Both the position numbers and the translations under genes were made by a program. From the NCBI GenBank assembly GCA_002009975.1, contig MTLP01000042.1:128001-192000 (forward strand): a stretch of 64,000 nucleotides of DNA, in the 5' to 3' direction. The stretch is from Thermococcus sp. JdFR-02. GTDB taxonomy: Archaea; Methanobacteriota_B; Thermococci; Thermococcales; Thermococcaceae. Below, piece after piece: positions 1 through 20,617 of this stretch. How positions within the stretch are numbered: position 1 is the stretch's first letter; the number at the start of each line of letters is the position of its first letter. A model generated the notes under the pieces. It was not told the origin of the DNA and ran no database searches. It saw only the letters and a program-made list of their open reading frames with translations.

Positions 1-969
<969 letters not shown>

Positions 970-973
<4 letters not shown>

Positions 974-1527
974 CTAGAGATCTTTCTTTTTTCTGCCACT
1001 TCTTTTAGCTTTAAGTGAGCTCTTAAAAGCCTCTTTTTGATGATGCGCTCTGCTATGAGGAGATTCAAGATTTTCCCCAGAAAACCATAGCGAAGGGAGT
1101 AATATACGCTCTCAATACTGAGGGTCATGTTATTCACAGGGATGAAGTAGTGTTCATACCGCAATTTCTTTAAAAATGTGTTCTCTTCCAGCATCTCTCC
1201 GGAATATAAGTAGTTTTCTTTAAAGTCAACAATCCGATATTTTACCCACTTTCCTGCTCCTTTTTCGCGGGTGTAATAGATCATCCCCCTCTCCAATTTT
1301 CCATCACCTTCAGATTTAAACTCATATTCCGGCCAGAACAACACGTGATTGCTGATGTTGGACACGAGAGAAAAAACTTCCTCCACTCTCGCGTCAATAA
1401 GCACCGCTATCTTGACACAATGAGAGAAACCTCGCGGTGGTTTACACTCTAAAAACTCAACATGTGTATTTTTAAGCCTCTTGACAATTAAGTGAATTCT
1501 CTGCTGGTCGTATTTTTTCGAGTTCAT
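970..1527 (-). CDS. SRPBCC/START-like domain protein
   Basis: VLIDARVEEVFSLVSNISNHVLFWP is a typical SRPBCC N-terminus. Confidence 0.7.
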
Positions 1528-1628
1528 TTTCCACCGCCTTTATTCATCGAGCAGATTCATCTGTATTCTGATAAAATTAGAGGGATAACTTAAAAAAATG
1601 TAAAAAATATGCAAACAAATGGAAGGGA

Positions 1629-1919
1629 CTAACCTTCTAGAAGCTTTCTCTTCCTTTTTTCGTATTCTTCGTCGTCTATTTCTCCTCTTGCGTATCTCTC
1701 ATTAAGTATTTCTAGAGCAGTCTTTTTTGAAGCCGTTTTTGATGTTCCTTGTTCTAAAAGCCATTTAATTAATAGGACTACTCCCACAATTATTGCAACC
1801 CAGAATAGGAGCATAAATATAGCCCAGCCCCATCCTAAGAAGCCAAATCCCATCATATCGTGCCACCCCCATTCACCTTCTCCCATATGAACGAGATAAT
1901 CTCCAAAACTTTCAAACAT
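1629..1919 (-). CDS. SHOCT-domain membrane protein (Met/Gly/His-rich N-terminus)
   Basis: HMGEGEWGWHDMMG, one TM helix, ALEILNERYARGEIDDEEYEKRK SHOCT motif. Confidence 0.85.
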   Translation of the reverse strand: MFESFGDYLVHMGEGEWGWHDMMGFGFLGWGWAIFMLLFWVAIIVGVVLLIKWLLEQGTSKTASKKTALEILNERYARGEIDDEEYEKRKRKLLEG

Positions 1920-1967
1920 TATCTTTCACCATATATTACTCAGTTAGAAAACCTATAACCCTTATCT

Positions 1968-1982
1968 TTAACAAAGTGTAAA
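1968..1982. promoter_or_regulatory. putative CopR-type operator TTAACAAAGTGTAAA
   Basis: Same semi-palindrome and flanking CTTAT spacing upstream of three minus-strand metal-related genes (also 11039, 25213). Confidence 0.55.
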
Positions 1983-2061
1983 AAATAAGGGACAAATTTT
2001 GGATATCTAAAAGATATAATGTTATATTGGCTGAGAGTTAACATGCGCAAAACTTAAAACT

Positions 2062-2083
2062 GAGTTATTATTATTCATAACTC
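2062..2083. promoter_or_regulatory. inverted repeat GAGTTAT-N8-ATAACTC, candidate thiamine-regulon operator
   Basis: Perfect 7-bp inverted repeat between TATA and RBS of thi4; related sequence before thiM. Confidence 0.45.
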
Positions 2084-2092
2084 GGTGATAAC

Positions 2093-2881
2093 ATGGCAAA
2101 GATACTGGCAAAGGTTAGTGAAAAGGATGTAACCTCAGCTATAGTCGATACTTTCTACAGCATGCTTAGAGAATACACAGAATCAGACGTTATAATCGTA
2201 GGCGCAGGACCGAGTGGATTAACCGCCGCTAAAGAGCTTGCAAAAGCAGGTAAAAAGGTCTTAGTTATAGAAAGGAACAACTATCTTGGAGGAGGCTTTT
2301 GGATCGGAGGATTCTTAATGAACAAGATAACAGTAAGGGCACCAGCACAAGAAGTGTTAGAAGAACTTGGTGTTCCATATGAGGAATACACAGAAGGTCT
2401 CTACGTTGCAGATGGTCCTCATGCATGTTCAAAGCTTATTGGAGCAGCATGTGACGCGGGAGTGAAGTTCCTCAATATGACGAGCTTTGATGATGTTGTT
2501 ATAAGAGATGGGAAAGTTGCAGGTGTTGTGGTTAACTGGACTCCAGTTCAAGCTTTGCCAAGGCAAATAACCTGTGTTGACCCAATAGCTCTTGAGTCAA
2601 AGATTGTAATAGACGCTACCGGACACGATGCCTTTGTTGCCAAGAAGCTCGAAGAAAAAGGGCTCCTGAAGACGAGAGGACACGGCTCAATGTGGGTTGA
2701 GGAGAGCGAAGACGCGGTTATAAATCACACAAGTGAAGTTTATCCAGGACTTATAGTTACGGGAATGGCAGTTTCTACAGTTTTTGGGCTTCCAAGAATG
2801 GGGCCAACCTTTGGAGGAATGCTCTTAAGCGGAAAGAGAGCTGCTGAAGTGGCTTTAGAGAAGCTTAAAGAACTGGAGTGA
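2093..2881 (+). CDS. thi4: thiazole synthase Thi4 (Cys-type)
   Basis: [11 protein letters not shown] Rossmann motif, [33 protein letters not shown]. Confidence 0.95.
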
Positions 2882-3537
2882 TCCCAATGAAGATTTACGT
2901 TGAAGATTCCTTTTGGGACTCCTTTTTATTTTTTGAGGGGATTAGAAAGTTTTTCAGGTTCTCTGTAGAATTTAATCCCTATAAATTTAAAGACCCCTAT
3001 TTTCTAGCTTACATAAGAGTGAGGAACCCAAATAAGAGAGAATTTTACGAGCCCTTTCCGGTGGAAGTCGAGAACGAAAAGAGGGGTCTCATAAAAGGGG
3101 TTATCTATGATGGTGTGGAACTGCTGAGATATTTCTCTCGAGATGTTGATATCTCTGAGCCGACAGTTTTGATAACTAACAGGCTTATAGCCACATTTGG
3201 AGAAGATGGGCGATATCACCTTAGAATGATTGTAATAGGTCCTGCAGCGATAATTTCACTTAAGGGAATACTCTATGCTCCAGCAAAGCCTCTCCAATAT
3301 TATATGATGCATTCATTTGGATTTGATGAGAAAATTGATGTAAAGGTTGACAAAGTGTTGAAAATGCTCCTTCTTCAGTTCTATGCTTATTTTAAGCATG
3401 AAGAGATCTTTTGCGAGAGCGAGGAATGCATGCTCCACAATTGCCATACAACGGAAGAGATAAAGAAAGTGAAAGGGCTGTGTGAGAGGCATAGGAAGAT
3501 GTTTGGAGATAGTGTAAATTTAAGAGGACTATCATAG
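2878..3537 (+). CDS. putative archaemetzincin-like/DUF6775-type protein
   Basis: [17 protein letters not shown] and C-terminal [13 protein letters not shown]...LCERH Cys cluster; no HExxH. Confidence 0.5.
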
Positions 3538-3743
3538 AATGTGTGAGAAAGGGTAACATAGAGTTAATGCTCGTTGCCATGATTTTAAAGATGCTACCTT
3601 TAGAATTAACTAAATTTTTAAGTTTTAAATACTACTCAAAGTTTTATTAAATTCATTTTCTTAGATTTTAGAAAAGAAGCTTTTTGAAGACTTACTTTTT
3701 TTTTAGAAATTTACTAACTTCAAATTATTAACTATAAGTTTAC

Positions 3744-3757
3744 GAAAAATTTAAGTA
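3744..3757 (+). promoter_or_regulatory. BRE/TATA promoter of RiPP cluster 1
   Basis: GAAAAA-TTTAAGTA ending ~65 nt upstream of the precursor ATG. Confidence 0.5.
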
Positions 3758-3820
3758 TAAGTACAACTTAAGAAAGTATGCTGAGGTAACGATGAAGCGG
3801 ATAAAAATGGAGGGGGCACT

Positions 3821-3937
3821 ATGCCAGAGCGTCAGGAAGAGGTGATAGTGTTAGAATTTGGAAATCCCTCCTTTGGGGAACCCAACTTTGTGTGCGGTTT
3901 ATGCGGATTTTGTGGCGCATTTCCACTTCCGACCTGA
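3821..3937 (+). CDS. RiPP precursor peptide, 38 aa: MPERQEEVIVLEFGNPSFGEPNFVCGLCGFCGAFPLPT
   Basis: Translated by hand (not in ORF track); GGAGGGGG RBS; acidic leader plus CxxCxxC core; directly upstream of rSAM/SPASM gene. Confidence 0.85.
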   Translation: MPERQEEVIVLEFGNPSFGEPNFVCGLCGFCGAFPLPT

Positions 3938-3942
3938 GCCCC

Positions 3943-3954
3943 TTTTTATTTTTT
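3943..3954 (+). terminator. oligo-T tract after precursor (possible partial terminator)
   Basis: TTTTTATTTTTT starting 6 nt after the stop codon; archaeal intrinsic terminators are U-rich. Confidence 0.45.
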
Positions 3955-3990
3955 ATGTATTCAAAAAACCAGATAAAGGAGGGAAAAATC

Positions 3991-5292
3991 ATGGTGGATT
4001 ATACTTTATCAAAATATGTTATAGAAACCGATTATAATGGATACGTAGTCCTTTATCATCTAATCTATACTCATATAATAGGACTATCAAGAGAAACATA
4101 TTTGAATATCAAAACGGGAAAATCTGAAGAAGTCAAAGAAAAGACTCTCCAACAGCTAATTGATCTGGGCTTTCTTGTACCATCAACTGTTGATGAAAAG
4201 GAGATTGTAAAGCTTAAGATGAACTCATTAAAATACACTCCACTTCAGATGGGGATATTTGTAAGTCTAACATCTGCATGCAATCTTAAGTGTCCATATT
4301 GTTATCAATCCATGAGAAATGATACAAAATATCTTACTGTTGAAAAATGGAAGGTGTTATACAAGTACATTACTAAACATCAGGACATTGTAAAAGCTTT
4401 AGCAATAGCTCTATTTGGAGGAGAACCTCTCATGAACTATGATATTGCAAAAGAGATCTGTAAAGACGTTAAAAAGTTGAGAGTTAATGGGATTCATACT
4501 AGTATAGCTCTTGTGACTAATGGCACCCTATTTACAAAGGAAGTTGGGGAAGAACTCTCAGATTACTTAGAGAATGTTCAGATAACAATAGATGGTATGC
4601 AAGGAGAACATGACAAACTTAGACCTCTTCCAAATGGCAAAAGTAGTTTTGAAATAATAATTAAAAATCTAATTGATAACATAGATCTTTATAAAGATAG
4701 AATTGTCCTTCGTTCGAATATCACTGAGGAAAACATAGAATCAGTTAAAACTTTATTAAAATACCTAAAAGAAGAAGTTGGGATTATGAACAAGATAAAA
4801 GAGGTTGATTTCAGGTATATCTATCCCTCTCAAAATGATATATTTGATGGTGCAATATATCGATTAGACAGTCATGTTTCAAAAATGTTGCTAGAGATGT
4901 ATAAATATGCCACAGAGCTTGGCTATAAAATTGCCAATCCCTTGCTATCTGTCGCACCTTGTATGGCATCTCATGCATTTAGTTTCGCAGTGGATGAAAA
5001 TCTGAACGTATACAAATGTGGAGGATTCCTATATTCTACTCCCGATGGGTATATCTCTCCTGATGGAAAGTTGGTAATAACGAATCCTAGATGGTACAAA
5101 TTAATAAACTTCGAACCTGTCTGTGTTAATACATGTAAGTTCGCCCCTGTGTGCTATGGAGGATGTAAATGGATGGGAATTATGAATAATTTTAAAGGTA
5201 CATGCAACATTGAGCACTTCAAGGATCTCAAAGAGTTCTTGAGGATATACGTTAATTCAAATTACAAAAGACAACTGGAGGTAATGCAATGA
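3991..5292 (+). CDS. radical SAM/SPASM peptide maturase with N-terminal RRE-like domain
   Basis: CNLKCPYC, FGGEPL; SPASM Cys CMAS..YKC..CVNTCKFAPVCYGGC..C; N-terminal VVLYHL...LQQLIDLGFLV; GGAGG RBS favours ATG 3991. Confidence 0.92.
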   Translation: MVDYTLSKYVIETDYNGYVVLYHLIYTHIIGLSRETYLNIKTGKSEEVKEKTLQQLIDLGFLVPSTVDEKEIVKLKMNSLKYTPLQMGIFVSLTSACNLKCPYCYQSMRNDTKYLTVEKWKVLYKYITKHQDIVKALAIALFGGEPLMNYDIAKEICKDVKKLRVNGIHTSIALVTNGTLFTKEVGEELSDYLENVQITIDGMQGEHDKLRPLPNGKSSFEIIIKNLIDNIDLYKDRIVLRSNITEENIESVKTLLKYLKEEVGIMNKIKEVDFRYIYPSQNDIFDGAIYRLDSHVSKMLLEMYKYATELGYKIANPLLSVAPCMASHAFSFAVDENLNVYKCGGFLYSTPDGYISPDGKLVITNPRWYKLINFEPVCVNTCKFAPVCYGGCKWMGIMNNFKGTCNIEHFKDLKEFLRIYVNSNYKRQLEVMQ

Positions 5293-6212
5293 AAAAAATT
5301 ATCAATATTGAAAATCTCACTAAAATTTATCCAAATGGCAAAAGAGCTAATGATAATATAACAATGTTTGTAAGAAAAGGGGAAATAGTGGGCTTAATCG
5401 GACCAAATGGTGCAGGAAAAACCACACTGATACGGCAGATTCTAGGACTTTTAAAACCAACAAAAGGTAAGATAGAAGTTATGGGAATCAACGTTTCAAA
5501 GAAACCAGAAAAAATTAGGGGGATTGTTGGATATGTCCCCCAATACCCCTTATATTATCCCTCCTTAACTGTTGAGGAAATTCTACACTACATTTTGCTC
5601 ATGAAAGGCATTAAAGATAAAAAAGAGCTTGAAGAAAAACTCAATAATGTTTTGAAATTAACAAACCTCGATTCAGCAAGAAAATTCTATGGTTACCAAC
5701 TTTCCGGAGGGATGATGAAATCTCTTCTTTTATCTATGGCATTAATACAAGAACCCCAGCTTTTAATTTTAGATGAACCAACTAGCATGGTCGACATAAA
5801 TACTAAGTTTAGAATATGGGGAACTATACAGAAAAACAAAAGAAAAGGAGTTCTTTTAGCAAGCCATGACCTAAATGAAGTAAAGAGAATTTGTGATAGA
5901 ATATACGTTATTATCAACGGAAAAATTATTGCAAGTGGAACAACTGGAGAGATTTCAAAGCTATTAAAAACGCCAACAGAGATAAGACTGATTCCTCAGG
6001 AGACCCAAGAGTTTAAGCACCTCATGGAAGAGCTTAACATCATGGGTGAAAAAAAAGGAAATATTTATGAAATGGCTTTTGAAGATCTTGAAAGTGCTTT
6101 AAATGCCATTCAACACATTTTGAAGACTTCGGGGATTGAATATCTCGAGGTGAATTCTCCATCATTCGAAAAAGCAATAATGACGCTCATTGGAGGTGGA
6201 AATAATGATTAA
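5289..6212 (+). CDS. ABC exporter ATP-binding subunit
   Basis: GPNGAGKT, LSGGM, LILDEPT. Confidence 0.95.
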   Translation: MKKIINIENLTKIYPNGKRANDNITMFVRKGEIVGLIGPNGAGKTTLIRQILGLLKPTKGKIEVMGINVSKKPEKIRGIVGYVPQYPLYYPSLTVEEILHYILLMKGIKDKKELEEKLNNVLKLTNLDSARKFYGYQLSGGMMKSLLLSMALIQEPQLLILDEPTSMVDINTKFRIWGTIQKNKRKGVLLASHDLNEVKRICDRIYVIINGKIIASGTTGEISKLLKTPTEIRLIPQETQEFKHLMEELNIMGEKKGNIYEMAFEDLESALNAIQHILKTSGIEYLEVNSPSFEKAIMTLIGGGNND

Positions 6213-6915
6213 GGCTTTGATCTTAATGGAACTTAAAGGCATGAGGATTTACATGTTGCAGATAATTGTAAGCCTGTTTGTAGTACCCTTGTCCTTTCTG
6301 GCGCTTATCCTTCTGAATTCAAAGGAGGCTCCAAGTACTTTCAAGGCATATCTCATTTCGGGATTTATAGTAATATCTTTTGTTGGGTTGTTGCTACTAA
6401 TGCTGTCATTTAGAGTTAGTACAGTGTTTGAACCGAGGTTTTTAGAGCTATATTCAACCTTGCCGGTGAGTATTGAAAAAGTTGTATTATCAATGTTCCT
6501 AGCGTATGTTCTTTTGGGGGTACCCCAAACACTTATTGCTTTACTTCTGCTTATTAAATATTCCAGCACCATTAACATCCCACTTCTTCTGACATCATTT
6601 GCATTAATTGCTGGGGAACTTGGAAGTATTGCAATAGTTTTGGGAGCAACAATTAGGAACCCATATAAGGTTCAGGCATTCACAAGTATTTTGCCATGGA
6701 TACTAACACTACTTTCACCAGCATATTACAAATCATCCTCCAAAATATTGCTGTTGAATCCAATAACTCATCTTCTAAACGTTCTAAGGGCGTCTTTAGC
6801 ACTTGAAAAACTTTCCATGACCTCTTTAGCATTTTCTGTGGTTTTAACTATTGTGTTGTGTATCTATACTGATAAACAACTGAGGAAACCCTATATGCTA
6901 GAAAAACCCTTTTAA
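6205..6915 (+). CDS. ABC-2 type exporter permease
   Basis: About six TM segments, LLNPITHLLNVLR; overlaps the ATPase gene. Confidence 0.85.
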   Translation: MIKALILMELKGMRIYMLQIIVSLFVVPLSFLALILLNSKEAPSTFKAYLISGFIVISFVGLLLLMLSFRVSTVFEPRFLELYSTLPVSIEKVVLSMFLAYVLLGVPQTLIALLLLIKYSSTINIPLLLTSFALIAGELGSIAIVLGATIRNPYKVQAFTSILPWILTLLSPAYYKSSSKILLLNPITHLLNVLRASLALEKLSMTSLAFSVVLTIVLCIYTDKQLRKPYMLEKPF

Positions 6916-6935
6916 GTTTCTCCTTTTTATTTACA

Positions 6936-7280
6936 TTGTGGGATAACCCATGTGAAGATTGCTCTCTAAAAGAGCATGTGTGCTGTGTCGTGCCGTTATT
7001 GAACCTGCCAATATTGAATCCAGCTCCTGTCCAACTTGGCACGCTCAGCATGGCGTTTTCTGTAATGACGGGATTATTCTTAAGTGGGCCTGTGAGCAGG
7101 GAAAAAGCGTTTGGGATTTTAGAGATCCTGCTCTCGGCGCCAGTCTGTCCCGCTGAGATTCTGTTCTCAAAAGCCATGGGGACTTCCGCATACGGCTTTA
7201 TCGTGATAACCATTGGGCTTGACTCAGGTGCTTTGTATTATAAGCACTTTGATATGGCAAAGGGGTTACCTTCTTCATAG
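6936..7280 (+). pseudogene. ABC-2 permease fragment
   Basis: SREKAFGILEILLSAPVCPAEILFSKA resembles the permease motif at 17787-18593; truncated, no RBS. Confidence 0.6.
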
Positions 7281-7512
7281 CGTTTTTTGCCCCTCTTTAC
7301 CTCCCCGAATACTATCATGGCAATCACCTTTAATTAAGCACAATCTTTTCACCCAACCTTTTCCCTAGTCCTTTTATTATTGCAAGCGAAGCCAAGAATG
7401 CACCCGCGGACAGCAACAGGGAAATTGCTAATGCCATGGATAAAGAAAGTCCAACCCCAAAAAACTCAAAAACGTTAGCAAAAGTATAAAAGGCAGGAAA
7501 GTTTTAACTGGA

Positions 7513-8354
7513 GTGAGTTTCGCATCAAAAAGTGGGGAAGTACACGCTTACTTGGGACACAATGGGGCTGGAAAGACTACTACATTCCGACTTATTCTGG
7601 GGATATTAGTCCCCGATGAAGGGTGCATTAGTGTGTTAGGAGTTAATCCTGCGGAAAATCCTGAGGTTAAGGCCCAAATTGGCTACCTCCCAGAGTATGA
7701 CCCTTTGTATCCAGACTTGACTGTTTGAGACAACTTAAAACGCTACGCTTTACTGAAAGGAGTTTATGATGAGAAGGAGCTACGGGACTTGTTGGAACTC
7801 TTTGAGATTAAAGAGTATGCTAAAAAAGAAGGTTTCAACCCTCTCAAACGGGACTCAGCGGAGGGTTGCAATAGCGAGGACTTTTATTGGAAGGCCCAAA
7901 ATCCTCCTTATAGACTGAAACAATGAAGGATTTGGACCCAGAATGGCGCTTGAGATTTAAGCACTTCTTAGAAAAGTACGTGAAAAAGGAGAAGGCCGCG
8001 GCTTTGTTCTCCACACATATTCTGAGCGATGTTGATGAGATATGTGAAAAGCTGACGGTGATAAAAGATGGGCGTGTATTATTCCCCGGAAGCTTAGAAG
8101 AACTTAAAAAGCATTTTTCATTTGAAGAGAGTGTTCTCATCAAAGTGCAGGAAGTCAGAAAGGCATTAGAGCTACTTAAACAATTCGGTTATTCTCCAAA
8201 ACTCACAAACAACTTTATCCTACTTAAAAATGCAGAACCGCCTGAAATTAACAAGCTCTTAGTAAAGAACGGAATAACAGTTGAAGAAATAAAAAAGAAG
8301 GGACTCACTTTAGAAACATTATACTCAACACTCTATGGCAGACATAAACATTAG
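7513..8354 (+). pseudogene. ABC ATPase pseudogene
   Basis: Walker A GHNGAGKT, in-frame TGA at 7726-7728, frameshift near 7825 into LSNGTQRRVAIAR..LLID*, further shift into DLDPEWR..FSTHILSDVDEIC. Confidence 0.85.
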
Positions 8355-8406
8355 CAGATTAACAAATGCTGAAATATTAAAAAGAAAAAATTCAGAGACT
8401 CAGCCG

Positions 8407-10527
8407 TCAAACTTTCAAAAACCTCGCATTTATTGCAACTATAACTGTGCTTAGGCTCATTAACAAAGCACCTACCGCTGGGCTTAATAGTATCCCATAG
8501 TTGTAAAGCGTTCCCGCTGCCAGAGGAATCGCAAATGTGTTGTAGCCTGTTGCCCATGCCAAGTTCTGCACCATTTTTCCATAGGTTGCCCTTGCAAGGT
8601 GTATTGCCGTTATGACGTCTCTTGGATCGTTTTTAACCAAGATTATGTCAGCACTTTCTATTGCCACATCAGTTCCTGCTCCAATTGCTACCCCAACGTC
8701 CGCTTGAATCAAAGCAGGAGCATCGTTTATTCCATCTCCAACCATTGCCACGATGAAGCCTTTTTCTTGAAGCTCCTTAACTTTCTCCGACTTTTGATGG
8801 GGCAAGACCTCTGCAAAGTAGCCATCCAGGCCAAGCTCCTCGGCAACCCACTTTGCAACTTTAGCGTTGTCTCCTGTGAGCATGTAAGCTTTAATTCCCA
8901 TCTCGTGGAGTCTCTTTATAGCTTCTCTCGATTCTGGTCTTATCTTATCGGCTAAAGCTAAAGCACCAGCTAGCTTTCCATCGATAACTAAAAACACCAC
9001 TGTCTTTCCTTGCTCCAAGACCTTATTAACACGCTCATCCTCTTTCCAGAGTCCGTTTTCCTTAAGAAAGCCAGGACTTACAACAAGAATCTCTTTGCCG
9101 TTAATAACTCCCTGAACACCTTTGCCAGGTAGTACTTTAGATTGTTCAACCTCATAGAGCTCAAGTCCAAGTTCCTTTGCTTTTTCCACTATCCCCTGTG
9201 CTATTGGATGTGATGAATGTCCCTCAAGGGCAGCTGCATATTTTAAAATCTCATTGTCTTCAAGTTCATCCAATGGAATTATATCCGTTACCTCAAACTT
9301 TCCTTCGGTCAAAGTTCCTGTCTTGTCAAAAACAACTACCTGAACATCTTTTGCCCTCTCAAAGGCTTCTCTGTTCCTAATGAGTATTCCCTTCCTCGCT
9401 GATATTGACGTCGACACTGAGACCACTAGAGGAACAGCCAGTCCCAAAGCGTGGGGGCATGTAATTACCATCACAGTGACCATTCTCTCGAGAGCGAACA
9501 CAAAGGGCTTCCCTAAGTAGAGCCAAGTACCGAGAGTCGCACTTCCAGCGGTTATTGCAATGAGTGTAAGCCAAAACGCTGCTCTATTGGCTAAATCTTG
9601 AGTCCTTGACCTTGTCTCTTGTGCCTGTCTTACAAGCTCGACGACCTGCATGAGGTAGGTGTCCTTACCCGTCTTCTCAATCCTTACTTTAATCGAGCCC
9701 TCTAAGTTTATTGAACCACCAATAACAATGGCACCTGGTTTCTTATAGACGGGCTTTGACTCACCGGTAAGCATCGCCTCGTTTACGCTCGTCTCTCCCT
9801 CAATTATGATGCCATCAGAAGGTATCTTCTCGCCGGGCTTGACCAAAACTATATCTCCCTTCTTGAGCTCGCTCACTGGAACATCTTTTATTCCCTCAGG
9901 AGTTATTAGGTGAGCATCAGTTGGCATGAGCTTTATTAGCTCCTCTAAAGCCCTTGAAGCACCGAGAACAGAGCGCATCTCTATGTAATGCCCCAAAAGC
10001 ATGATGTCAATAAGCGTTGCAAGCTCCCAATAGAACGTCTTTCCGGGCAAACCAAAGGTTACTGCAGCACTGTAGGAAAAGGCAACCGTGATTGCCAAAG
10101 CTATTAGCGTCATCATTCCTGGGGTTTTCTTCTTAAATTCATCTCTCATTCCTGTTAGGAACGGCTTTCCGCCGTAGAAGTAGACCACCGCCGACAGTGT
10201 GAAGAGGACATACCTATCACCAGGGAAAGTGAATGTAAAGCCAAGGAACTTTTGAATCAGCGGAGATAGGAGCAGTATCGGAATCGTAAGTATGGTAGAA
10301 ATTATAAATCTCCTCTTGAAGTCCTCCATCATCATTTTATGGTGCTCTGCATGCGAATGCTTGTGCTCTCCGTGCTCATGATTTATGTGTTCATGCTTTT
10401 CTTCCTCCATCTCGTGTCTATGCATTTCATGATGTTCATGCTTTTTGCTTTCCTCATGTTGATGCATTCTCATTTCTTTGTGTTCTTCATGCATGTGCTC
10501 TTTGTGTATTTCTTTTTCATCTTCCAT
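8407..10527 (-). CDS. copB: copper-exporting P1B-3 ATPase (CopB type)
   Basis: His/Met-rich N-terminus, CPH in TM6, DKTGTLT, GDGINDAP, YN/MSLST. Confidence 0.93.
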   Translation of the reverse strand: MEDEKEIHKEHMHEEHKEMRMHQHEESKKHEHHEMHRHEMEEEKHEHINHEHGEHKHSHAEHHKMMMEDFKRRFIISTILTIPILLLSPLIQKFLGFTFTFPGDRYVLFTLSAVVYFYGGKPFLTGMRDEFKKKTPGMMTLIALAITVAFSYSAAVTFGLPGKTFYWELATLIDIMLLGHYIEMRSVLGASRALEELIKLMPTDAHLITPEGIKDVPVSELKKGDIVLVKPGEKIPSDGIIIEGETSVNEAMLTGESKPVYKKPGAIVIGGSINLEGSIKVRIEKTGKDTYLMQVVELVRQAQETRSRTQDLANRAAFWLTLIAITAGSATLGTWLYLGKPFVFALERMVTVMVITCPHALGLAVPLVVSVSTSISARKGILIRNREAFERAKDVQVVVFDKTGTLTEGKFEVTDIIPLDELEDNEILKYAAALEGHSSHPIAQGIVEKAKELGLELYEVEQSKVLPGKGVQGVINGKEILVVSPGFLKENGLWKEDERVNKVLEQGKTVVFLVIDGKLAGALALADKIRPESREAIKRLHEMGIKAYMLTGDNAKVAKWVAEELGLDGYFAEVLPHQKSEKVKELQEKGFIVAMVGDGINDAPALIQADVGVAIGAGTDVAIESADIILVKNDPRDVITAIHLARATYGKMVQNLAWATGYNTFAIPLAAGTLYNYGILLSPAVGALLMSLSTVIVAINARFLKV

Positions 10528-10595
10528 ATTACTCACCACCATTAGGTTTTAATTCTCAAACTTTAATAACATTTTTAACCAAAAGAATGAAAAAG

Positions 10596-10976
10596 TTAAA
10601 TTTTATCAACAACTTTTTTCAAAATCTCTTCAATTTGTCCAGCAACTTTTAATAACCTCTCATTTTCTGCCACTTCCATAGCTTTCGTTAGAAGTAGGGG
10701 GCTTACGTAAGTTTTCTCGTCTTTAGTGTAAACTAAAAGATTGCATGGTAAAAATGCTCCACTGTCATAGTCGATTTCCATGAGCTGACTTGAAAATTTT
10801 GGATTGCATGCACCTAAGATGACGTATTTCTCCATATCTAAGTCAAGCTTCTCTTTAAAGAGCTTATCAATCCTTATCTCACTCAGTACTCCAAAACCTT
10901 CCTTTTTGAGCTCCTCTTTGACTTTATCAACTGCTTCTTCAAAGCTCAGTTTGGTCTCTTTCTTATAGACATACAT
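10596..10976 (-). CDS. DUF302 family protein
   Basis: GFGVLSEI, YVILGACNP, LPCN motifs. Confidence 0.85.
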   Translation of the reverse strand: MYVYKKETKLSFEEAVDKVKEELKKEGFGVLSEIRIDKLFKEKLDLDMEKYVILGACNPKFSSQLMEIDYDSGAFLPCNLLVYTKDEKTYVSPLLLTKAMEVAENERLLKVAGQIEEILKKVVDKI

Positions 10977-11038
10977 TTCACATCACCTACTTTATTATCC
11001 ATGATTATTTTTAATTTGAAAAGCTAATAGGCTTATTA

Positions 11039-11053
11039 TTGTCAAAGTTGAAA
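11039..11053. promoter_or_regulatory. putative CopR-type operator TTGTCAAAGTTGAAA
   Basis: Part of a ~70-bp upstream element similar to 25189-25260. Confidence 0.55.
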
Positions 11054-11085
11054 GTAGAAAAGGACAAAATTTTCAAAAATGAAAA

Positions 11086-13164
11086 TTATTTTAAAATCCT
11101 TATTGCATTGAACACCGCTATTAATGCAACACCAACATCTGCAAACACTGCCTCCCACATTGTAGCTTCTCCAAGAATTCCAAGGCTTATGAAAGCCAGC
11201 TTAACCCCAAGAGCAAAGATTATGTTCTGCCACACTATCCTTTGTGTCTTTCTTGCGGTTTTTATCCCTGTAGGCAACTTTGAAGGCTTGTCGTCCATTA
11301 TAACTATATCTGCTGTTTCAATAGCGGCATCGCTTCCTAAAGCACCCATTGCAACTCCCACATCAGCTCTTGCAATAACGGGTGCATCGTTTATTCCATC
11401 GCCCACAAAAACTATTGTATCATTTGAACCCTTTTTCTTTTCAAGCTCTTCAATAACTCTCACTTTGTCCTCTGGTAGCAGCTCGGCATAAAACTCATCC
11501 AAGCCTATTTGTCTTGCTATCTCCTCTGCAACATCTTTGCTGTCCCCAGTTACCATTATAACCTTTTTAACACCTAAGCGCTTTAGTTCTCTAACAGCTT
11601 TTGGAGCATCTTCTTTTATCTCGTCAGATATAACTATGTAGCCCGCGTATTTTCTGTTAACGACAACATGAGCAACGGTCCCCTTTACGTGGCATGTATC
11701 ATGTTCAATATCGAATTTGTGCAGTAACCTATCATTTCCAACCATTATCTCTGTTTTATCAATTTTTGCCCTAACGCCATGTCCTGTTATCTCTTCATGT
11801 TCTTTTATTTGGGCTTCGTTGATTTCTTTTCCATAGGCTTCTTTTATTGCCTTTGCAATTGGATGATTTGAATGTGCTTCTGCTAAAGCTGCAAATTTCA
11901 AAATTTCCTCTTCGCTGAAACCGTTCCTCGTTTCTATTTTTGTAACTTTAAAGACACCCTTTGTTAGCGTCCCAGTTTTATCAAAAGCCACAATTGTTGC
12001 TTTACTAAGCGCATCAAGAAAGTTTGATCCCTTAACTAGTATTCCTTCCCTAGCAGATTTTCCAATTCCTCCAAAGTAGCCGAGAGGTATTGAAAGCACC
12101 AAAGCGCAAGGGCATGAGATTACCAAGAGCACTAAAGCCCTGTAGAGCCAATCAGAAAAAGATTCTCCAAAGGCTAGTGGTGGAATTAAAGCAATAAGTG
12201 CAGCTAATCCCACAACCGCTGGGGTGTAGTAGTGAGCAAACCTTGTGATAAACTTCTCTGTTTTAGCCTTTCTTGCACTTGCATTTTCCACAAGCTCTAA
12301 AATCCTCGAAATAGTTGACTCTTTAAGCTCTTTCGTAACTTTGACTATCAGAAGACCGCTTAAGTTTACCATCCCTGATAAGATTTCCCCTCCTTCCTTT
12401 ACAGTTCTTGGAACGCTCTCTCCGGTTAAAGCCGATGTATCAACATTTGAACTTCCCTCAATGATGATCCCATCAACGGGAACTCTCTCACCGGGCTTTA
12501 TGATTATTATGTCACCAACTTTAAGCTCCTCAGGCTTGACTTTGACTATCTTATCCCCCACTTTGAGGTTTGCATACTCTGCCTTTAAAGCTAATAAAGC
12601 CTTAATAGAACGTCTTGACCTGTTAATGGCTAAATCTTGGAAGAATTCACCAACAGTGTAAAACAGCATAACTCCCACAGCTTCTGGATATTCTCGAATT
12701 GCAAATGCACCAAGCGTGGCTATAGCTATGAGAAAGTTCTCATCAAAGACATTTCCATGTATGGAGTTGACAAAAGCGTTCCTTAACACTTTCCAACCCA
12801 CTAAGAGGTAGCTCACAACAAATATTCCAAGCACAAAGGCATTGTCGTAGTTGTAGTAGTACCTCAGAACTATTCCAATGATGAACAGCAAAAGTGAAGG
12901 GATTATGAAGTGGAGCATCTTCCTCGGGTCGTCGTGGTCATGGTGGTGATGGTCATGTTCGTGCTCGTCCTTCTCAATGACCTTAACTCCCGGCTCAACC
13001 CTCTTTATTATCTCCTTAGCCTTCTCGATGTCTCCCTCTATCACAGCTTCCTTGGTGGCAAAGTTTACCATAGCAAACTCAAAGCCTTCTTTTTTTAATG
13101 CTTCTTCAATTTCATAGGCACAGCTAGCACAGTCAAGACCTTCTAATTTGAGCTTCTTTGGCAT
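11086..13164 (-). CDS. cadA: Zn/Cd/Pb-exporting P1B-2 ATPase
   Basis: GLDCASCA HMA domain, His linker, SCPCAL, DKTGTLT, FADVG. Confidence 0.93.
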   Translation of the reverse strand: MPKKLKLEGLDCASCAYEIEEALKKEGFEFAMVNFATKEAVIEGDIEKAKEIIKRVEPGVKVIEKDEHEHDHHHHDHDDPRKMLHFIIPSLLLFIIGIVLRYYYNYDNAFVLGIFVVSYLLVGWKVLRNAFVNSIHGNVFDENFLIAIATLGAFAIREYPEAVGVMLFYTVGEFFQDLAINRSRRSIKALLALKAEYANLKVGDKIVKVKPEELKVGDIIIIKPGERVPVDGIIIEGSSNVDTSALTGESVPRTVKEGGEILSGMVNLSGLLIVKVTKELKESTISRILELVENASARKAKTEKFITRFAHYYTPAVVGLAALIALIPPLAFGESFSDWLYRALVLLVISCPCALVLSIPLGYFGGIGKSAREGILVKGSNFLDALSKATIVAFDKTGTLTKGVFKVTKIETRNGFSEEEILKFAALAEAHSNHPIAKAIKEAYGKEINEAQIKEHEEITGHGVRAKIDKTEIMVGNDRLLHKFDIEHDTCHVKGTVAHVVVNRKYAGYIVISDEIKEDAPKAVRELKRLGVKKVIMVTGDSKDVAEEIARQIGLDEFYAELLPEDKVRVIEELEKKKGSNDTIVFVGDGINDAPVIARADVGVAMGALGSDAAIETADIVIMDDKPSKLPTGIKTARKTQRIVWQNIIFALGVKLAFISLGILGEATMWEAVFADVGVALIAVFNAIRILK

Positions 13165-13166
13165 GT

Positions 13167-13529
13167 TTACTCCTCCATGTGCTTGAGCGCAACTTTCAGA
13201 ATCTCCCTTATATGCTCGTCATCTAAGCGGTAAAAGACGTTCTTTCCATCTTTTCTGTATGTAACAATTTTTCTATCCTTTAAAATCCTAAGCTGGTGAG
13301 ATATAGCTGAAACTGACAAGCCAGTAATGTTTGATAAATCACACGTGCAAAGCTCATCCTCCAGCAGAGCGAAGAGTATTTTAAGTCTTGTTGGATTTCC
13401 TAAAGCATCAAAGAAGTCGGAAACCTCAAGAATAACTTCATCATCAGGCAATTTTTCTTTGGCTTTAAGGATTTTGTCTAAATGCTCCTCATACACCTTA
13501 CACACTTCCGTCCCTTTTTCATTACTCAT
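13167..13529 (-). CDS. ArsR/SmtB (CadC-like) metal-responsive repressor
   Basis: FDALGNPTRLKIL, ELCTCDL, SAISHQLRIL, LDDEHI; GAGGTGA RBS before ATG 13529. Confidence 0.92.
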   Translation of the reverse strand: MSNEKGTEVCKVYEEHLDKILKAKEKLPDDEVILEVSDFFDALGNPTRLKILFALLEDELCTCDLSNITGLSVSAISHQLRILKDRKIVTYRKDGKNVFYRLDDEHIREILKVALKHMEE

Positions 13530-13542
13530 TTTTATCACCTCT

Positions 13543-13566
13543 ACATTTGAGCAATTGTGCAAATGT
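13543..13566. promoter_or_regulatory. ArsR/CadC-type operator ACATTTGAGCAATTGTGCAAATGT
   Basis: 24-bp imperfect palindrome between TATA and RBS of the arsR-cadA operon. Confidence 0.75.
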
Positions 13567-13621
13567 TCTTATAAATGTTACTGGACAGAAATGTATAGGA
13601 GAATAAAAGAGAGCTTGGGAG

Positions 13622-14212
13622 TTATTCAGCAGGCCTTCCAAGAGGGAAGATATATAGCGGATCTCCTTCAATATCAATTACCTTTTTGACTTCCTCGTCT
13701 CGAAAAGCACCAACTGCAACAGTTCCAAGGCCTAAAGCCGTCGCCTGGAGGTAAATATTTTGTCCCATATGTCCCGCATCTATGTGCACGTATCTTATTC
13801 CCCTCTTACCATACCTGCTCGTGGTTCTTTCATAGTGGGCAACTATCACAATGTTCACTGGAGCGGTAGCAACACACTTCTGCCCGAGACATGCACGAGC
13901 GAGCTCTTCTCTTAAATCTCCCTTTCGAATAACCTTTAGAACATGCTTCTTCCCATCATAATGGTACAGCCCCGGCTCAAGATTCTCAACACTGCTCACA
14001 ACGGTGTATACCTCAAAAGGATACCTCGCACCTGCACTTGGAGAGGTTCTCTTTCCCCAGAGGTTTACTCCATAAGCCGCCCAGAGAACTTGAGAGAGCT
14101 CGCCAAGGGTTAATGGTTCTGAGGTATATCTTCTAATGCTCTTTCTCCTGTATATCGCTTCCTCAAGGCTCATTTCCCCTTTAATTCTTGGTTCTGGTAG
14201 TTTGATCTCCAT
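13622..14212 (-). CDS. SagB/ThcOx-family nitroreductase-like flavoprotein
   Basis: RRKSIRRY, RTSPSAGARYP, DAGHMGQNIYLQATALGLG. Confidence 0.9.
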   Translation of the reverse strand: MEIKLPEPRIKGEMSLEEAIYRRKSIRRYTSEPLTLGELSQVLWAAYGVNLWGKRTSPSAGARYPFEVYTVVSSVENLEPGLYHYDGKKHVLKVIRKGDLREELARACLGQKCVATAPVNIVIVAHYERTTSRYGKRGIRYVHIDAGHMGQNIYLQATALGLGTVAVGAFRDEEVKKVIDIEGDPLYIFPLGRPAE

Positions 14213-19065: not shown

Positions 19066-19466
19066 AGTGCATCACTGCAAATTTTTTCTATAATGTCCAC
19101 TATAGATATTCTTTTATTATATTTTTCCAGATAAATAAATCCATTTACGAAAAGCCAAGTTAAAGCAAAAAGTACATCCTGGTTCAATTGTTTTTCGGTG
19201 ACCTCAGGATATTTCTCTCTAAGAGAATTTAGGATAGATTTAAAATTAGTTCCTGACTTATCGGAAGTCATTAAATATATCTGGGCCAGTGTAGGGTTCA
19301 TAACACATATCTTCCCAGTTATTGGATTGAATGTAATAATTTTGCCATCTTTCTCCTGTCTCCACTTTATTGAATTGTTCATAAATACCCTAGAGTTCAT
19401 TATGTCTCTTTTGATATCATCAAGTAGTGGTGGGTTCTTAACTTTGTTATTCTTTATCTTGTTCAT
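19062..19466 (-). CDS. stand-alone PqqD-family RiPP recognition element (RRE)
   Basis: WRQEKDGKIITFNPITGKICVMNPTLAQIY...LREKY....LNQDVLFALTWLFVNGFI fits the three-strand/three-helix PqqD pattern. Confidence 0.88.
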   Translation of the reverse strand: MNKIKNNKVKNPPLLDDIKRDIMNSRVFMNNSIKWRQEKDGKIITFNPITGKICVMNPTLAQIYLMTSDKSGTNFKSILNSLREKYPEVTEKQLNQDVLFALTWLFVNGFIYLEKYNKRISIVDIIEKICSDAL

Positions 19467-20617
19467 GTTAGCTCCCTCCTAATTTCTCGGGAAAGTTTAA
19501 ATTGTGCATCTTTCGGCAATTTTTTCAAATTGATATATTCGCCACACTCCTTTCGTGTGAGTAAAAGTTTATTTAATTTCAGGAAATCTTTCTCTGTTTT
19601 TATATATGTAGAAAGTGCTAATAGAACTAGATTATCTCTCCAAATATTTTGTAACTCGGGCCATAAATTGTTTATACCTTCCTCAATATGTCCATATGCT
19701 AAATTTAAATACGGAGTTGGCAAAATATATCCCTCTGCACTGATCGTCAGTACTACAGAATTTAAATATGGCCCTATAACTATGTGCTCTGTGGGATCCC
19801 CAAAAGTTATTTTCAATGGATAATGTCCTGAATTCTCATTGATCCAAGTTATTAATTTTGAGTATTGTTCTTCTGTAGGTATGAGATTTAGATGTCTTTC
19901 ACTTTCTGGGACAAAGTACATAGATCTAACCTCAAATACTCCAAGATCCAATGCTAGTTCAACTGTATTAGGGAAATCGTGAATATTCAAACTGGTTGCG
20001 CAAAATGCTACAGCCGTGTTTATGTTATAGTCAACTAAATTTTTTATTGCATTAACAGCTTTATTAAATGTTCCTTTACCTCTCAACAGATCCATAATTT
20101 CAGATTTTGATCCATCTAACGAAATCTGTACGCTACCGATATTTAATTCAGACAACTTAGAGGCAAATTTATCTGTAATTAGTGTTCCATTACTCACAAA
20201 ATTCACTCCAATGCCTTTTGAATTTGCATATTCTATAATCTCAAAGAAATCTCTATGCAATGTTGGCTCTCCTCCGCAGAGGCATATACCTAAAACCTCT
20301 AACTCTGAGAGTTCGTCTATTATCTTGAACACATTATCTTTACAAAGGCTTGGAGCTACGGTTCTTTGGGGAGCAGCTAGATAACAATATGGGCATTTGA
20401 GATTACATCGGTAGGTAATGTCAATTGCAGCAAATATTGGCCCTTTGATATTATCTATCCAAGACTTCAACTTTTTGCGAGTTTCGATATATTTTATCCA
20501 TGCCTCAAGAAATCCTGGGATCTGTCCCACCCTAATGGGTTTTCCTCTATTTGGAAGAATGACCTCTAAGAGCTCATTAGTCGCATTGTGTAGCTCTTCT
20601 AAAAAAGAAATGTGCAT
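19463..20617 (-). CDS. radical SAM peptide maturase lacking SPASM/twitch cysteines (candidate epimerase)
   Basis: CNLKCPYC, GGEPTL, SNGTL, VQISLDG; C-terminal LTISAEGYILPTPY has T where PC is expected. Confidence 0.9.
   Translation of the reverse strand: MHISFLEELHNATNELLEVILPNRGKPIRVGQIPGFLEAWIKYIETRKKLKSWIDNIKGPIFAAIDITYRCNLKCPYCYLAAPQRTVAPSLCKDNVFKIIDELSELEVLGICLCGGEPTLHRDFFEIIEYANSKGIGVNFVSNGTLITDKFASKLSELNIGSVQISLDGSKSEIMDLLRGKGTFNKAVNAIKNLVDYNINTAVAFCATSLNIHDFPNTVELALDLGVFEVRSMYFVPESERHLNLIPTEEQYSKLITWINENSGHYPLKITFGDPTEHIVIGPYLNSVVLTISAEGYILPTPYLNLAYGHIEEGINNLWPELQNIWRDNLVLLALSTYIKTEKDFLKLNKLLLTRKECGEYINLKKLPKDAQFKLSREIRRELT

Follow-up and report, generated by a model that had tools for sequence, protein, structure and literature searches.

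We analyzed a 64,000-nucleotide stretch of the archaeon Thermococcus sp. JdFR-02 (contig MTLP01000042.1, positions 128,001 to 192,000, forward strand), here called the window and numbered from its first base. Close to its start, the window carries four genes on one strand, encoding a short cysteine-containing peptide, a radical S-adenosylmethionine (rSAM) enzyme, and the two subunits of an ATP-binding cassette (ABC) transporter. Together they form a genuine cassette for a ribosomally synthesized and posttranslationally modified peptide (RiPP); the kind of system is known, and the family is new and uncurated. The cassette has the following features.

3743-3762, + strand: AT-rich box resembling a transcription factor B recognition element and TATA box (BRE/TATA) of the precursor gene, read from the sequence and aligning with the box 5' of orthologous peptide genes
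3809-3816, + strand: GGAGG-type ribosome-binding site of the precursor gene, 4 nt before the ATG at 3821 (7 nt for the GGAGG core)
3821-3937, + strand: precursor peptide gene of 38 codons (38 amino acids), in which the leader ends at an EPNF motif and the core is VCGLCGFCGAFPLPT
3943-3947 and 3949-3954, + strand: T5 and T6 tracts, read from the sequence and probably acting as an archaeal terminator or attenuator ahead of the enzyme gene
3991-5292, + strand: maturase gene (RRE-rSAM-SPASM), 433 amino acids, with an ATG start behind its own ribosome-binding site
3991-4245, + strand: RRE (leader-recognition) domain, residues 1 to 85, as seen in an AlphaFold model (predicted local distance difference test score [pLDDT], 91.7)
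4246-4959, + strand: radical-SAM core, matching PF04055 at 64.1 bits (cut-off, 29.5)
4279-4302, + strand: CX3CX2C motif, residues 97 to 104, with C97, C101, and C104 invariant in 20 homologs
4960-5292, + strand: SPASM-type C-terminal domain, with C324, C343, C378, C382, C388, C392, and C405 invariant in the same alignment of 20 homologs (alignment A1)
5289-6212, + strand: ABC ATP-binding subunit, DrrA-like, matching Pfam ABC_tran (PF00005) at 113 bits (cut-off, 25)
6205-6915, + strand: probable ABC-2-type permease, matching Pfam ABC2_membrane_3 (PF12698) at 26.9 bits, below the cut-off of 31.6

The initial annotation, made by a model from the letters of the window, had proposed a 38-residue peptide that the automated open reading frame (ORF) track had missed, and that ORF is present at 3821-3937 (+) with the 38 residues quoted. 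The strong ribosome-binding site, upstream TATA box, and downstream T-tract that were reported with it are likewise all in place. The further statement that the core consists of three tandem C-G-x units is accurate for the window, which reads C-G-L-C-G-F-C-G-A, but the derived CxxCxxC pattern is specific to the window, the core of the family being C-G-x-F-C. Using a hidden Markov model (HMM) of 69 family peptides, from which that of the window was left out, we searched the 1739 stop-to-stop pieces of the window; ORF 3821-3937 was the only significant match (E, 6.4e-7), and the second-best piece scored an E value of 0.45. The gene is single copy in the window's own genome. The exact 38-residue sequence does not occur in a collection of 15 billion proteins, and the peptide is therefore unannotated there.

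Codon comparisons of orthologous peptide genes gave 10 synonymous and 2 nonsynonymous differences between loci L007 and L009, a ratio of nonsynonymous to synonymous substitution rates (dN/dS) of 0.03, and dN/dS values of 0.09 for L007 versus L008 and 0.07 for L006 versus L010. The range of 0.03 to 0.09 applies to ortholog pairs with unsaturated synonymous sites; in most other pairs these sites are saturated, and the protein motif is retained. At the position equivalent to the ribosome-binding site, GGAGGTGAT is present in all six Thermococcaceae orthologs. The 38-codon ORF is a real gene under purifying selection. Neither an integration site nor a known RNA is indicated, as no tRNA was found in window positions 1-14000 and no Rfam match in 3300-8600.

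The peptide gene accompanies the enzyme gene in related genomes. We searched 97 genomes of the window's taxonomic family, the Thermococcaceae, with the enzyme and found full-length homologs of about 50% identity (E values of 1e-144 to 1e-154) in five genomes besides the window's. Genome G018 has an internally deleted homolog, genome G022 contains, in addition, a remnant that matches the last 79 residues at 86% identity, and nine more matches stood at about 30% identity. Just upstream and on the same strand, a similar ORF of 32 to 36 codons occurs at six of six loci with a close or deleted enzyme homolog. A six-frame search of the 97 genomes with a peptide profile matched seven genomes, once each and always just upstream of the enzyme gene; six of these have a full-length close enzyme, and the seventh has an internally deleted one. 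The profile was built from those peptides, so the only informative part of this result is the lack of matches in the remaining 90 genomes.

Outside the Thermococcaceae, the closest enzyme loci belong to a Thermotogae metagenome-assembled genome (MAG), Alkaliphilus transvaalensis, two Desulfurococcaceae MAGs, a Bacteroidales MAG, and a Dehalococcoidia single-cell assembly. At five of the six, the peptide gene precedes that of the enzyme. At the exception, the Dehalococcoidia locus (L032), upstream sequence amounts to just 221 bases, the enzyme gene is frameshifted, and no family peptide was found. Locus L034 has a related peptide, but one without EPNF. No family peptide was found at the more distant loci (enzyme identity, 23 to 29%) or at L038, L055, L071, and L077 (23 to 27%). 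The initial annotation had made its case depend on the peptide being conserved beside rSAM homologs and being transcribed. Conservation is borne out at 6/6 related Thermococcaceae loci and 5/6 of the closest outside loci; as to transcription, it is the ortholog in Thermococcus kodakarensis that is strongly transcribed.

Among called proteins, a profile search found 44 short ones, only four of which carry a source name, in each case "hypothetical" or "uncharacterised." At E values of ≤0.001, an exhaustive HMMER search against 1.84 billion representatives gave 40 matches, 39 of them such peptides; the remaining one, P0171 (495 amino acids), is not a family member. Among 52 distinct peptides, all 52 have the leader-end motif [PS]-[NS]-F, which is EPNF in nearly all, and most have [IV]-[LI]-E-x-G followed by a fixed five-residue spacing to that motif. 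The core that follows is 9 to 18 residues long in every case and contains two cysteines in 27 peptides, three in 22, and four in 3. Its commonest form is C-G-x-F-C-N-P-[VI]; the window core is a three-cysteine variant with an inserted L-C that is found in bacterial members as well. We found no match to five family precursors, including the window's, among NCBIfam models at E values of ≤10, no Pfam match to 11 family precursors, and no usable match for the peptide in the ESM Atlas. The pairs show what generally marks a RiPP precursor and its maturase, namely, a short precursor, conserved in its leader and variable in its core, that is encoded beside a modifying enzyme. Our literature search found no description of an EPNF peptide family or motif, although supplements of compendia (e.g., about 15,000 enzymes in PMC10288494) may list the group unnamed. 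The EPNF-Cys peptides are thus an apparently undescribed family of modified peptides, present in heat-loving archaea and several bacterial phyla.

One of the Thermococcaceae loci, L023, encodes an enzyme 100% identical to a protein that NCBI names from T. kodakarensis KOD1, and nineteen RNA runs from five studies cover most of that stretch. Over 1.2 kb around the peptide gene, we examined three raw-read runs from two studies and the contigs of one further run. Across the peptide gene (positions 6787-6950 of the L023 stretch), depth was 801 to 1796 in run X21, 2289 to 4672 in X23, and 11 to 84 in X24. Upstream (6582-6786) it was 0 in X21 and X23 and 0 to 1.3 in X24, and over the enzyme gene it was 0 to 7. 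At base 6797, which is 25 nt before the GTG start at 6822, 118 and 315 molecules start; the contig of the fourth run begins at 6798 and continues through the enzyme gene. A canonical BRE/TATA box lies 20 to 35 nt ahead of base 6797. Past the stop codon of the peptide gene, at two T5 tracts, depth collapses from hundreds or thousands to 0 to 7. First mates fell on the + strand at ratios of 50 to 300 to 1, and the few reads over the + strand enzyme gene were oriented alike (in X23, + only in 8/8 bins over 7402-7700). Because the first mates orient as these reads do, the abundant RNA is sense to the peptide ORF.

Thus, the T. kodakarensis ortholog is transcribed as a discrete, abundant short RNA of about 150 nt. 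Precursor RNA is far in excess of enzyme RNA in this species, a ratio that is not quantitative because the libraries hold short adapter-bearing fragments. In the window, transcription is predicted to start near 3779-3780 by homology only. T-tracts follow the peptide gene across the Thermococcaceae loci and are weakest in L008. Between the peptide and enzyme genes, the bacterial loci L029 and L031 have a hairpin terminator in place of the T-tracts of the archaeal cassettes. The attenuated-operon design is preserved across the two domains by these differing signals.

The maturase begins at ATG 3991, since its homologs align from residue 4 to 6 and a ribosome-binding site precedes this codon. The GTG at 3892 given by the ORF track is a mis-start. 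A public collection holds, as entry P0001, a 396-residue form of the enzyme that starts at an internal TTG and is without about half of the RRE domain; it too is a mis-start. When residues 1 to 85 of the model were compared with 48,161 PDB representatives, the best matches were RREs, with the N terminus of TigE (Z, 8.1; 85 residues aligned) and TbiB1 (7.2) ahead of lasso B1 (6.4), the PbtF RRE (5.3), and PqqD (4.9). Foldseek returned the same RRE set with weak E values. As modeled, the N-terminal domain has the winged-helix RRE fold.

The AlphaFold model of the full-length enzyme has a pLDDT of 89 and aligns with anSME over residues 85..429 (Z, 26.6). In its C-terminal region, the structural alignment with CteB and anSME extends to residues 427 to 430. 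The Pfam SPASM model did not match the enzyme at E values of ≤0.01; the seven invariant cysteines of this region are those expected of a SPASM domain, and they are predicted to bind two auxiliary [4Fe-4S] clusters. With PF04055, ten invariant cysteines, and the RRE fold matches, the enzyme agrees with the initial annotation's description of an rSAM protein with an RRE-like N terminus and SPASM cysteines. Its best NCBIfam matches are the geopeptide maturase (175 bits), CefB (159), TIGR04463 (152), and PapB (108), followed by Clo7bot (99), CcpM (91), QhpD (83), and the SCIFF maturase (81). All eight are maturases of cysteine-rich peptides or known thioether synthases. Because every score is far below the curated cut-off, the enzyme is related to these families without belonging to any of them.

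CteB (PDB 5WGG/5WHY) is the best solved relative (profile E, 6.5e-31; Foldseek E, 1.9e-16; Z, 26.6, with model residues 7..427 aligned to chain residues 1..448). Like the window enzyme, it combines an N-terminal RRE, a radical-SAM core, and a seven-cysteine SPASM domain, and it has a short cysteine-containing precursor encoded nearby, the SCIFF peptide CteA. However, the two are only about 17% identical, the SCIFF maturase model (TIGR03974) gives 81.3 bits against a cut-off of 425, and the SCIFF precursor is unrelated, in that no SCIFF or other NCBIfam or Pfam model matched the EPNF peptides tested. TigE, ChlB, and anSME give fold scores similar to that of CteB, and SkfB and SuiB give lower ones.

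Nearest by profile are two families of maturases of short cysteine-rich peptides, the geopeptide maturase (TIGR04280; 175.1 bits, cut-off of 400) and CefB (NF038107, "Cys-every-fifth"; 158.6 bits, cut-off of 600). Both match over nearly the full length, and the window enzyme is a member of neither; none of the five EPNF peptides tested matched the CefA model (NF038108). We found no paper on either family, so they lend no chemistry. PapB (freyrasin; NF047865) and QhpD are thioether-forming rSAM/SPASM enzymes that act on cysteines in short motifs, and the window enzyme falls outside both families (107.9 bits against 340 and 83 against 453). Their acceptor motif is Cys-X3-Asp/Glu, which is missing from the window core, there being no acidic residue after EPNF.

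An archaeal comparison is offered by CrpC of Methanococcus voltae (TIGR04463), reported as an RRE-rSAM-SPASM enzyme with three [4Fe-4S] clusters that installs ranthionine thioethers (PMC13692751). The window enzyme shares this make-up, and TIGR04463 is its third-best family match, but at 151.7 bits against a cut-off of 525 it is not a member. The CrpC substrate, CrpA, is a large repeat protein with C-X-X-Q/D motifs and not a peptide of 30 to 40 residues (PMC13692751). Within Thermococcus, a 2026 preprint describes subtilosin-like sboA/albA/albC clusters in Thermococcus celer and T. nautili and proposes their acquisition from thermophilic bacteria (bioRxiv 10.64898/2026.07.27.741052). As here, these are rSAM peptide clusters with an ABC component. 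They differ in their order of enzyme, membrane protein, and ABC protein, and in a precursor that is aligned to subtilosin A through three cysteines and two phenylalanines forming a hairpin; the preprint names no species beyond those two and does not mention T. kodakarensis (10.64898/2026.07.27.741052). Judged by its text, the subtilosin-like clusters are a different system.

The transporter genes are tightly joined to the maturase gene. The enzyme stop and the ATPase start overlap in the ATGA at 5289-5292, and the permease start at 6205 overlaps the ATPase stop (6205-6212). Given these overlaps and the ABC_tran match above its cut-off, the translationally coupled ABC pair that the initial annotation placed after the rSAM gene is real. 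The ATPase's best NCBIfam match is TIGR01188 (drrA; 192 bits, under the cut-off of 312), and the permease has five to six hydrophobic segments, six helices being typical of an ABC-2 permease. The ATPase (55 to 58% identity) and permease (47 to 50%) lie 3' of the enzyme gene at all five Thermococcaceae loci with flanking sequence. They also follow the enzyme gene at 5/7 loci outside the family, those of Thermotogae, Alkaliphilus, Bacteroidales, Dehalococcoidia, and one of the Desulfurococcaceae. The two loci without the ABC pair are L030 and L034. The linkage of peptide, enzyme, and pump thus extends over two domains of life, and the four-gene cassette of peptide, RRE-rSAM-SPASM enzyme, ABC ATPase, and ABC-2 permease recurs in Thermotogota, Bacillota, and Bacteroidota and at one of the two Desulfurococcaceae loci, the other being without the pump.

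The conserved unit comprises these four genes only, in keeping with the earlier remark that the cluster encodes no protease. A gene for a "probable metallopeptidase" (DUF6775/DUF7001) lies upstream at 2878-3537, translationally coupled to a Thi4-like gene at 2093-2881. We rejected it as the missing protease given this coupling and its absence from the flanks of 5/5 related cassettes. A Thi4 query of the five related cassettes gave only a 36-residue match, in two of them. Flanking sequence varies from genome to genome; at the T. kodakarensis locus the Pfam-scanned flanking ORFs are mostly housekeeping genes, and the ten that were scanned include no integrase or transposase.

We built a maximum-likelihood tree of 25 enzymes, with a midpoint root used for drawing only and with peptide linkage checked in 11 locus rows only. 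The 21 enzymes taken as EPNF type form a supported clade (100/99) apart from other Thermococcaceae peptide maturases. Within it the six Thermococcaceae enzymes are monophyletic (100/99), the window's enzyme being the deepest branch, and they are placed among bacterial lineages rather than as sister to the Desulfurococcaceae pair. This placement, the presence of the cassette in 7/97 genomes, and the existence of decayed copies point to horizontal spread and frequent loss.

Of the decayed copies, the one in G018 (L017/L026) has an enzyme gene without residues ~172 to 401 and an intact peptide gene, ATPase, and permease. The other, in G022 (L025; G022:C1:2004000-2020000, ~6100-8000), is a remnant 86 to 91% identical to the window's cassette. 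It has lost the peptide gene and, apart from the last 79 residues, the enzyme; its permease is intact, its ATPase is frameshifted, and next to them comes the second ABC system that also lies downstream in the window. Elsewhere, G022 has a complete two-cysteine cassette. In the window, that second ABC-2 transporter stands directly 3' of the cassette, at 6936-8354, and is decayed as well. Its ATPase matches an intact 295-residue relative in three frames (7465-7833, 7775-8026, and 7917-8336), and its permease consists of fragments, one of them inverted (7336-7500).

Taken together, these results lead us to regard the locus as probably a self-contained four-gene RiPP cassette that couples a strongly promoted precursor to leader binding by an RRE, cysteine cross-linking by an rSAM/SPASM enzyme, and an ABC-2 pump. 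The 38-residue precursor would be expressed from its own strong promoter, and the T-tracts past its stop codon would let little of that transcription continue into the genes for the enzyme and the pump. We infer that the maturase's RRE domain may bind the leader (VLE-x-G, five residues, EPNF), after which the rSAM/SPASM part, with one SAM-cleaving and two auxiliary clusters, would cross-link the short cysteine core, most likely through thioethers from cysteine sulfur to carbon. The coupled pump might then export the product, protect the producer, or both, with the leader presumably removed along the way. The reading given in the initial annotation is thus supported, its thioether cross-links and secretion being extrapolated from relatives. 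Thioethers are the best guess because cysteine is the conserved feature of the core and because characterized members of the nearest families, including the archaeal CrpC, make sulfur-to-carbon bridges. In sactipeptides such a bridge joins the cysteine sulfur to the alpha carbon of another residue, and in ranthipeptides it joins the sulfur to a beta or gamma carbon. A PapB-like Cys-X3-Asp rule is inapplicable because the window core has no Asp, Glu, or Asn. Candidate acceptors are the invariant Asn and Phe of EPNF and the conserved core Phe; alternatively, EPNF may merely mark the end of the leader.

Several observations weigh against this reading. The assignment of thioether chemistry is drawn from relatedness to other enzymes, and this enzyme misses the curated cut-off of all named maturase families and is only 16 to 18% identical to solved enzymes. 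Fold relatives that score near CteB (TigE, anSME, and ChlB, with SuiB lower) perform other chemistry. One paper holds that, for an uncharacterized rSAM enzyme, only very high identity to a known enzyme would allow the reaction to be predicted (PMC10288494). The cassette encodes no protease or leader-cleaving domain, and the window core is without the N-P-[VI] that follows the last cysteine in most members. The RNA evidence comes from a species other than the window's and from libraries of short adapter-bearing fragments in which 1556/2071 reads were only partly placed.

The points about chemistry bear on a first alternative, in which precursor and maturase are a real pair but the enzyme does something other than form thioethers, be it a carbon-carbon cyclophane on the conserved Phe, epimerization, or cysteine oxidation. 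TigE, for example, carries out cyclopropyl chemistry, and its fold score, like those of anSME and ChlB, is near that of CteB (SuiB's is lower). The enzyme also has weaker NCBIfam matches to the cyclophane-forming YhhB (71 bits) and GrrM/OscB (56 bits), the core has a conserved Phe, and F-C-N is similar to the three-residue motifs of cyclophanes. However, the window core has F-C-G rather than F-C-N, conservation in the core is, after the EPNF motif, highest at the two cysteines, and the eight best NCBIfam families (81 to 175 bits), all maturases of cysteine peptides or thioether synthases, outscore the cyclophane families. Even with the caution on predictions from distant similarity expressed in PMC10288494, we think such chemistry rather unlikely. 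A slightly better, though still unlikely, case can be made for a modified peptide that is no secreted weapon and stays in or on the cell as a signal or a metal- or redox-active molecule, the ABC-2 pair serving immunity or other transport. This would suit a pump without a peptidase domain and a cassette without a leader protease, as well as the very high constitutive RNA in T. kodakarensis laboratory cultures, which would be unusual for a costly toxin. Two large opposite-strand ORFs nearby (8407-10542 and 11086-13164) look, by eye only, like metal-pump ATPases, but the neighboring genes vary among genomes, whereas the ATPase and permease travel with the cassette (5/5 and 5/7 loci), as expected of a dedicated exporter or immunity pump.

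Two further alternatives would deny the window a functional peptide. That its cassette is a decaying relic without a product is suggested by the decay of related cassettes (the internally deleted enzyme gene of G018 and the remnant in G022), by the frameshifted second ABC system directly downstream, and by the atypical core. Yet all four ORFs are intact and remain translationally coupled, the enzyme keeps every invariant residue of alignment A1, including the ten cysteines, and the promoter box, ribosome-binding site, and T-tracts are in place, which makes a relic improbable. Hardly any weight at all falls to the idea that the small ORF is untranslated and that its transcript is a small noncoding RNA, although the T. 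kodakarensis transcript is short, discrete, and abundant like many small RNAs. Synonymous sites are saturated or far more changed than nonsynonymous ones, the amino acid motif has persisted in both domains of life despite divergence of the DNA, a ribosome-binding site precedes every Thermococcaceae copy, and there is no Rfam match; we reject this idea on dN/dS and motif conservation.

Returning to the peptide-maturase-pump cassette, we also entertain a bolder version of it. The EPNF-Cys peptides, with cores of 9 to 18 residues, would be a mobile class shared across domains and carry a new type of bridge, for example, from cysteine sulfur to the EPNF Asn or Phe or to the core Phe. The precursor RNA is highly abundant in T. 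kodakarensis, and the peptides could act as weapons or signals in encounters of hyperthermophilic archaea with thermophilic bacteria that also carry the cassette. We offer this as a speculation that has perhaps a modest chance of proving right; if true, it would provide the first archaeal rSAM peptide natural product with a known role.

This analysis supplies the substrate peptides of a maturase family that has not been curated, and it shows that in both Archaea and Bacteria the genes for peptide, enzyme, and pump occur as a set. Archaeal rSAM-modified peptides have been predicted by genome mining, including ranthipeptide and sactipeptide clusters in a 2025 survey that lists them without products, and the products are essentially unknown (PMC12144867). 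The only characterized archaeal enzyme of this kind that we found acts on a large protein (PMC13692751). T. kodakarensis is named as genetically tractable in PMC12966224. Since this tractable species carries the cassette and transcribes the precursor highly, the chemistry and role of such an archaeal peptide are directly testable in it. The very short cores with two or three cysteines are also simple substrates for high-temperature enzymology.

The searches brought up other rSAM/SPASM loci in the same family. At L011-L016, L018, and L021 the genes are about 30% identical to the window's and mostly follow cysteine-packed precursors of 62 to 77 residues, with none listed at L013. The leader of these precursors (E-F-E-I-I-E-K-G-S, then E-G-I-A-G-N) resembles that of the EPNF family. 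Four of them matched no NCBIfam model, and together they look like a second peptide family with a larger core. At L020 (G047:C151), three tandem cysteine-rich peptide genes precede an rSAM gene, and the third encodes a clear CefA "Cys-every-fifth" peptide (NF038108; 50.9 bits, cut-off of 30). The window's own genome holds a further candidate peptide cluster at L003 (G000:C5:62832-66803), an rSAM/SPASM gene 23% identical to the maturase with cysteine-rich ORFs of 67 and 60 amino acids just downstream, both below every NCBIfam cut-off. Within the window itself, another rSAM gene lies at 19463-20617 (-) (L002) and is 39% identical to the maturase over query residues 90 to 229.

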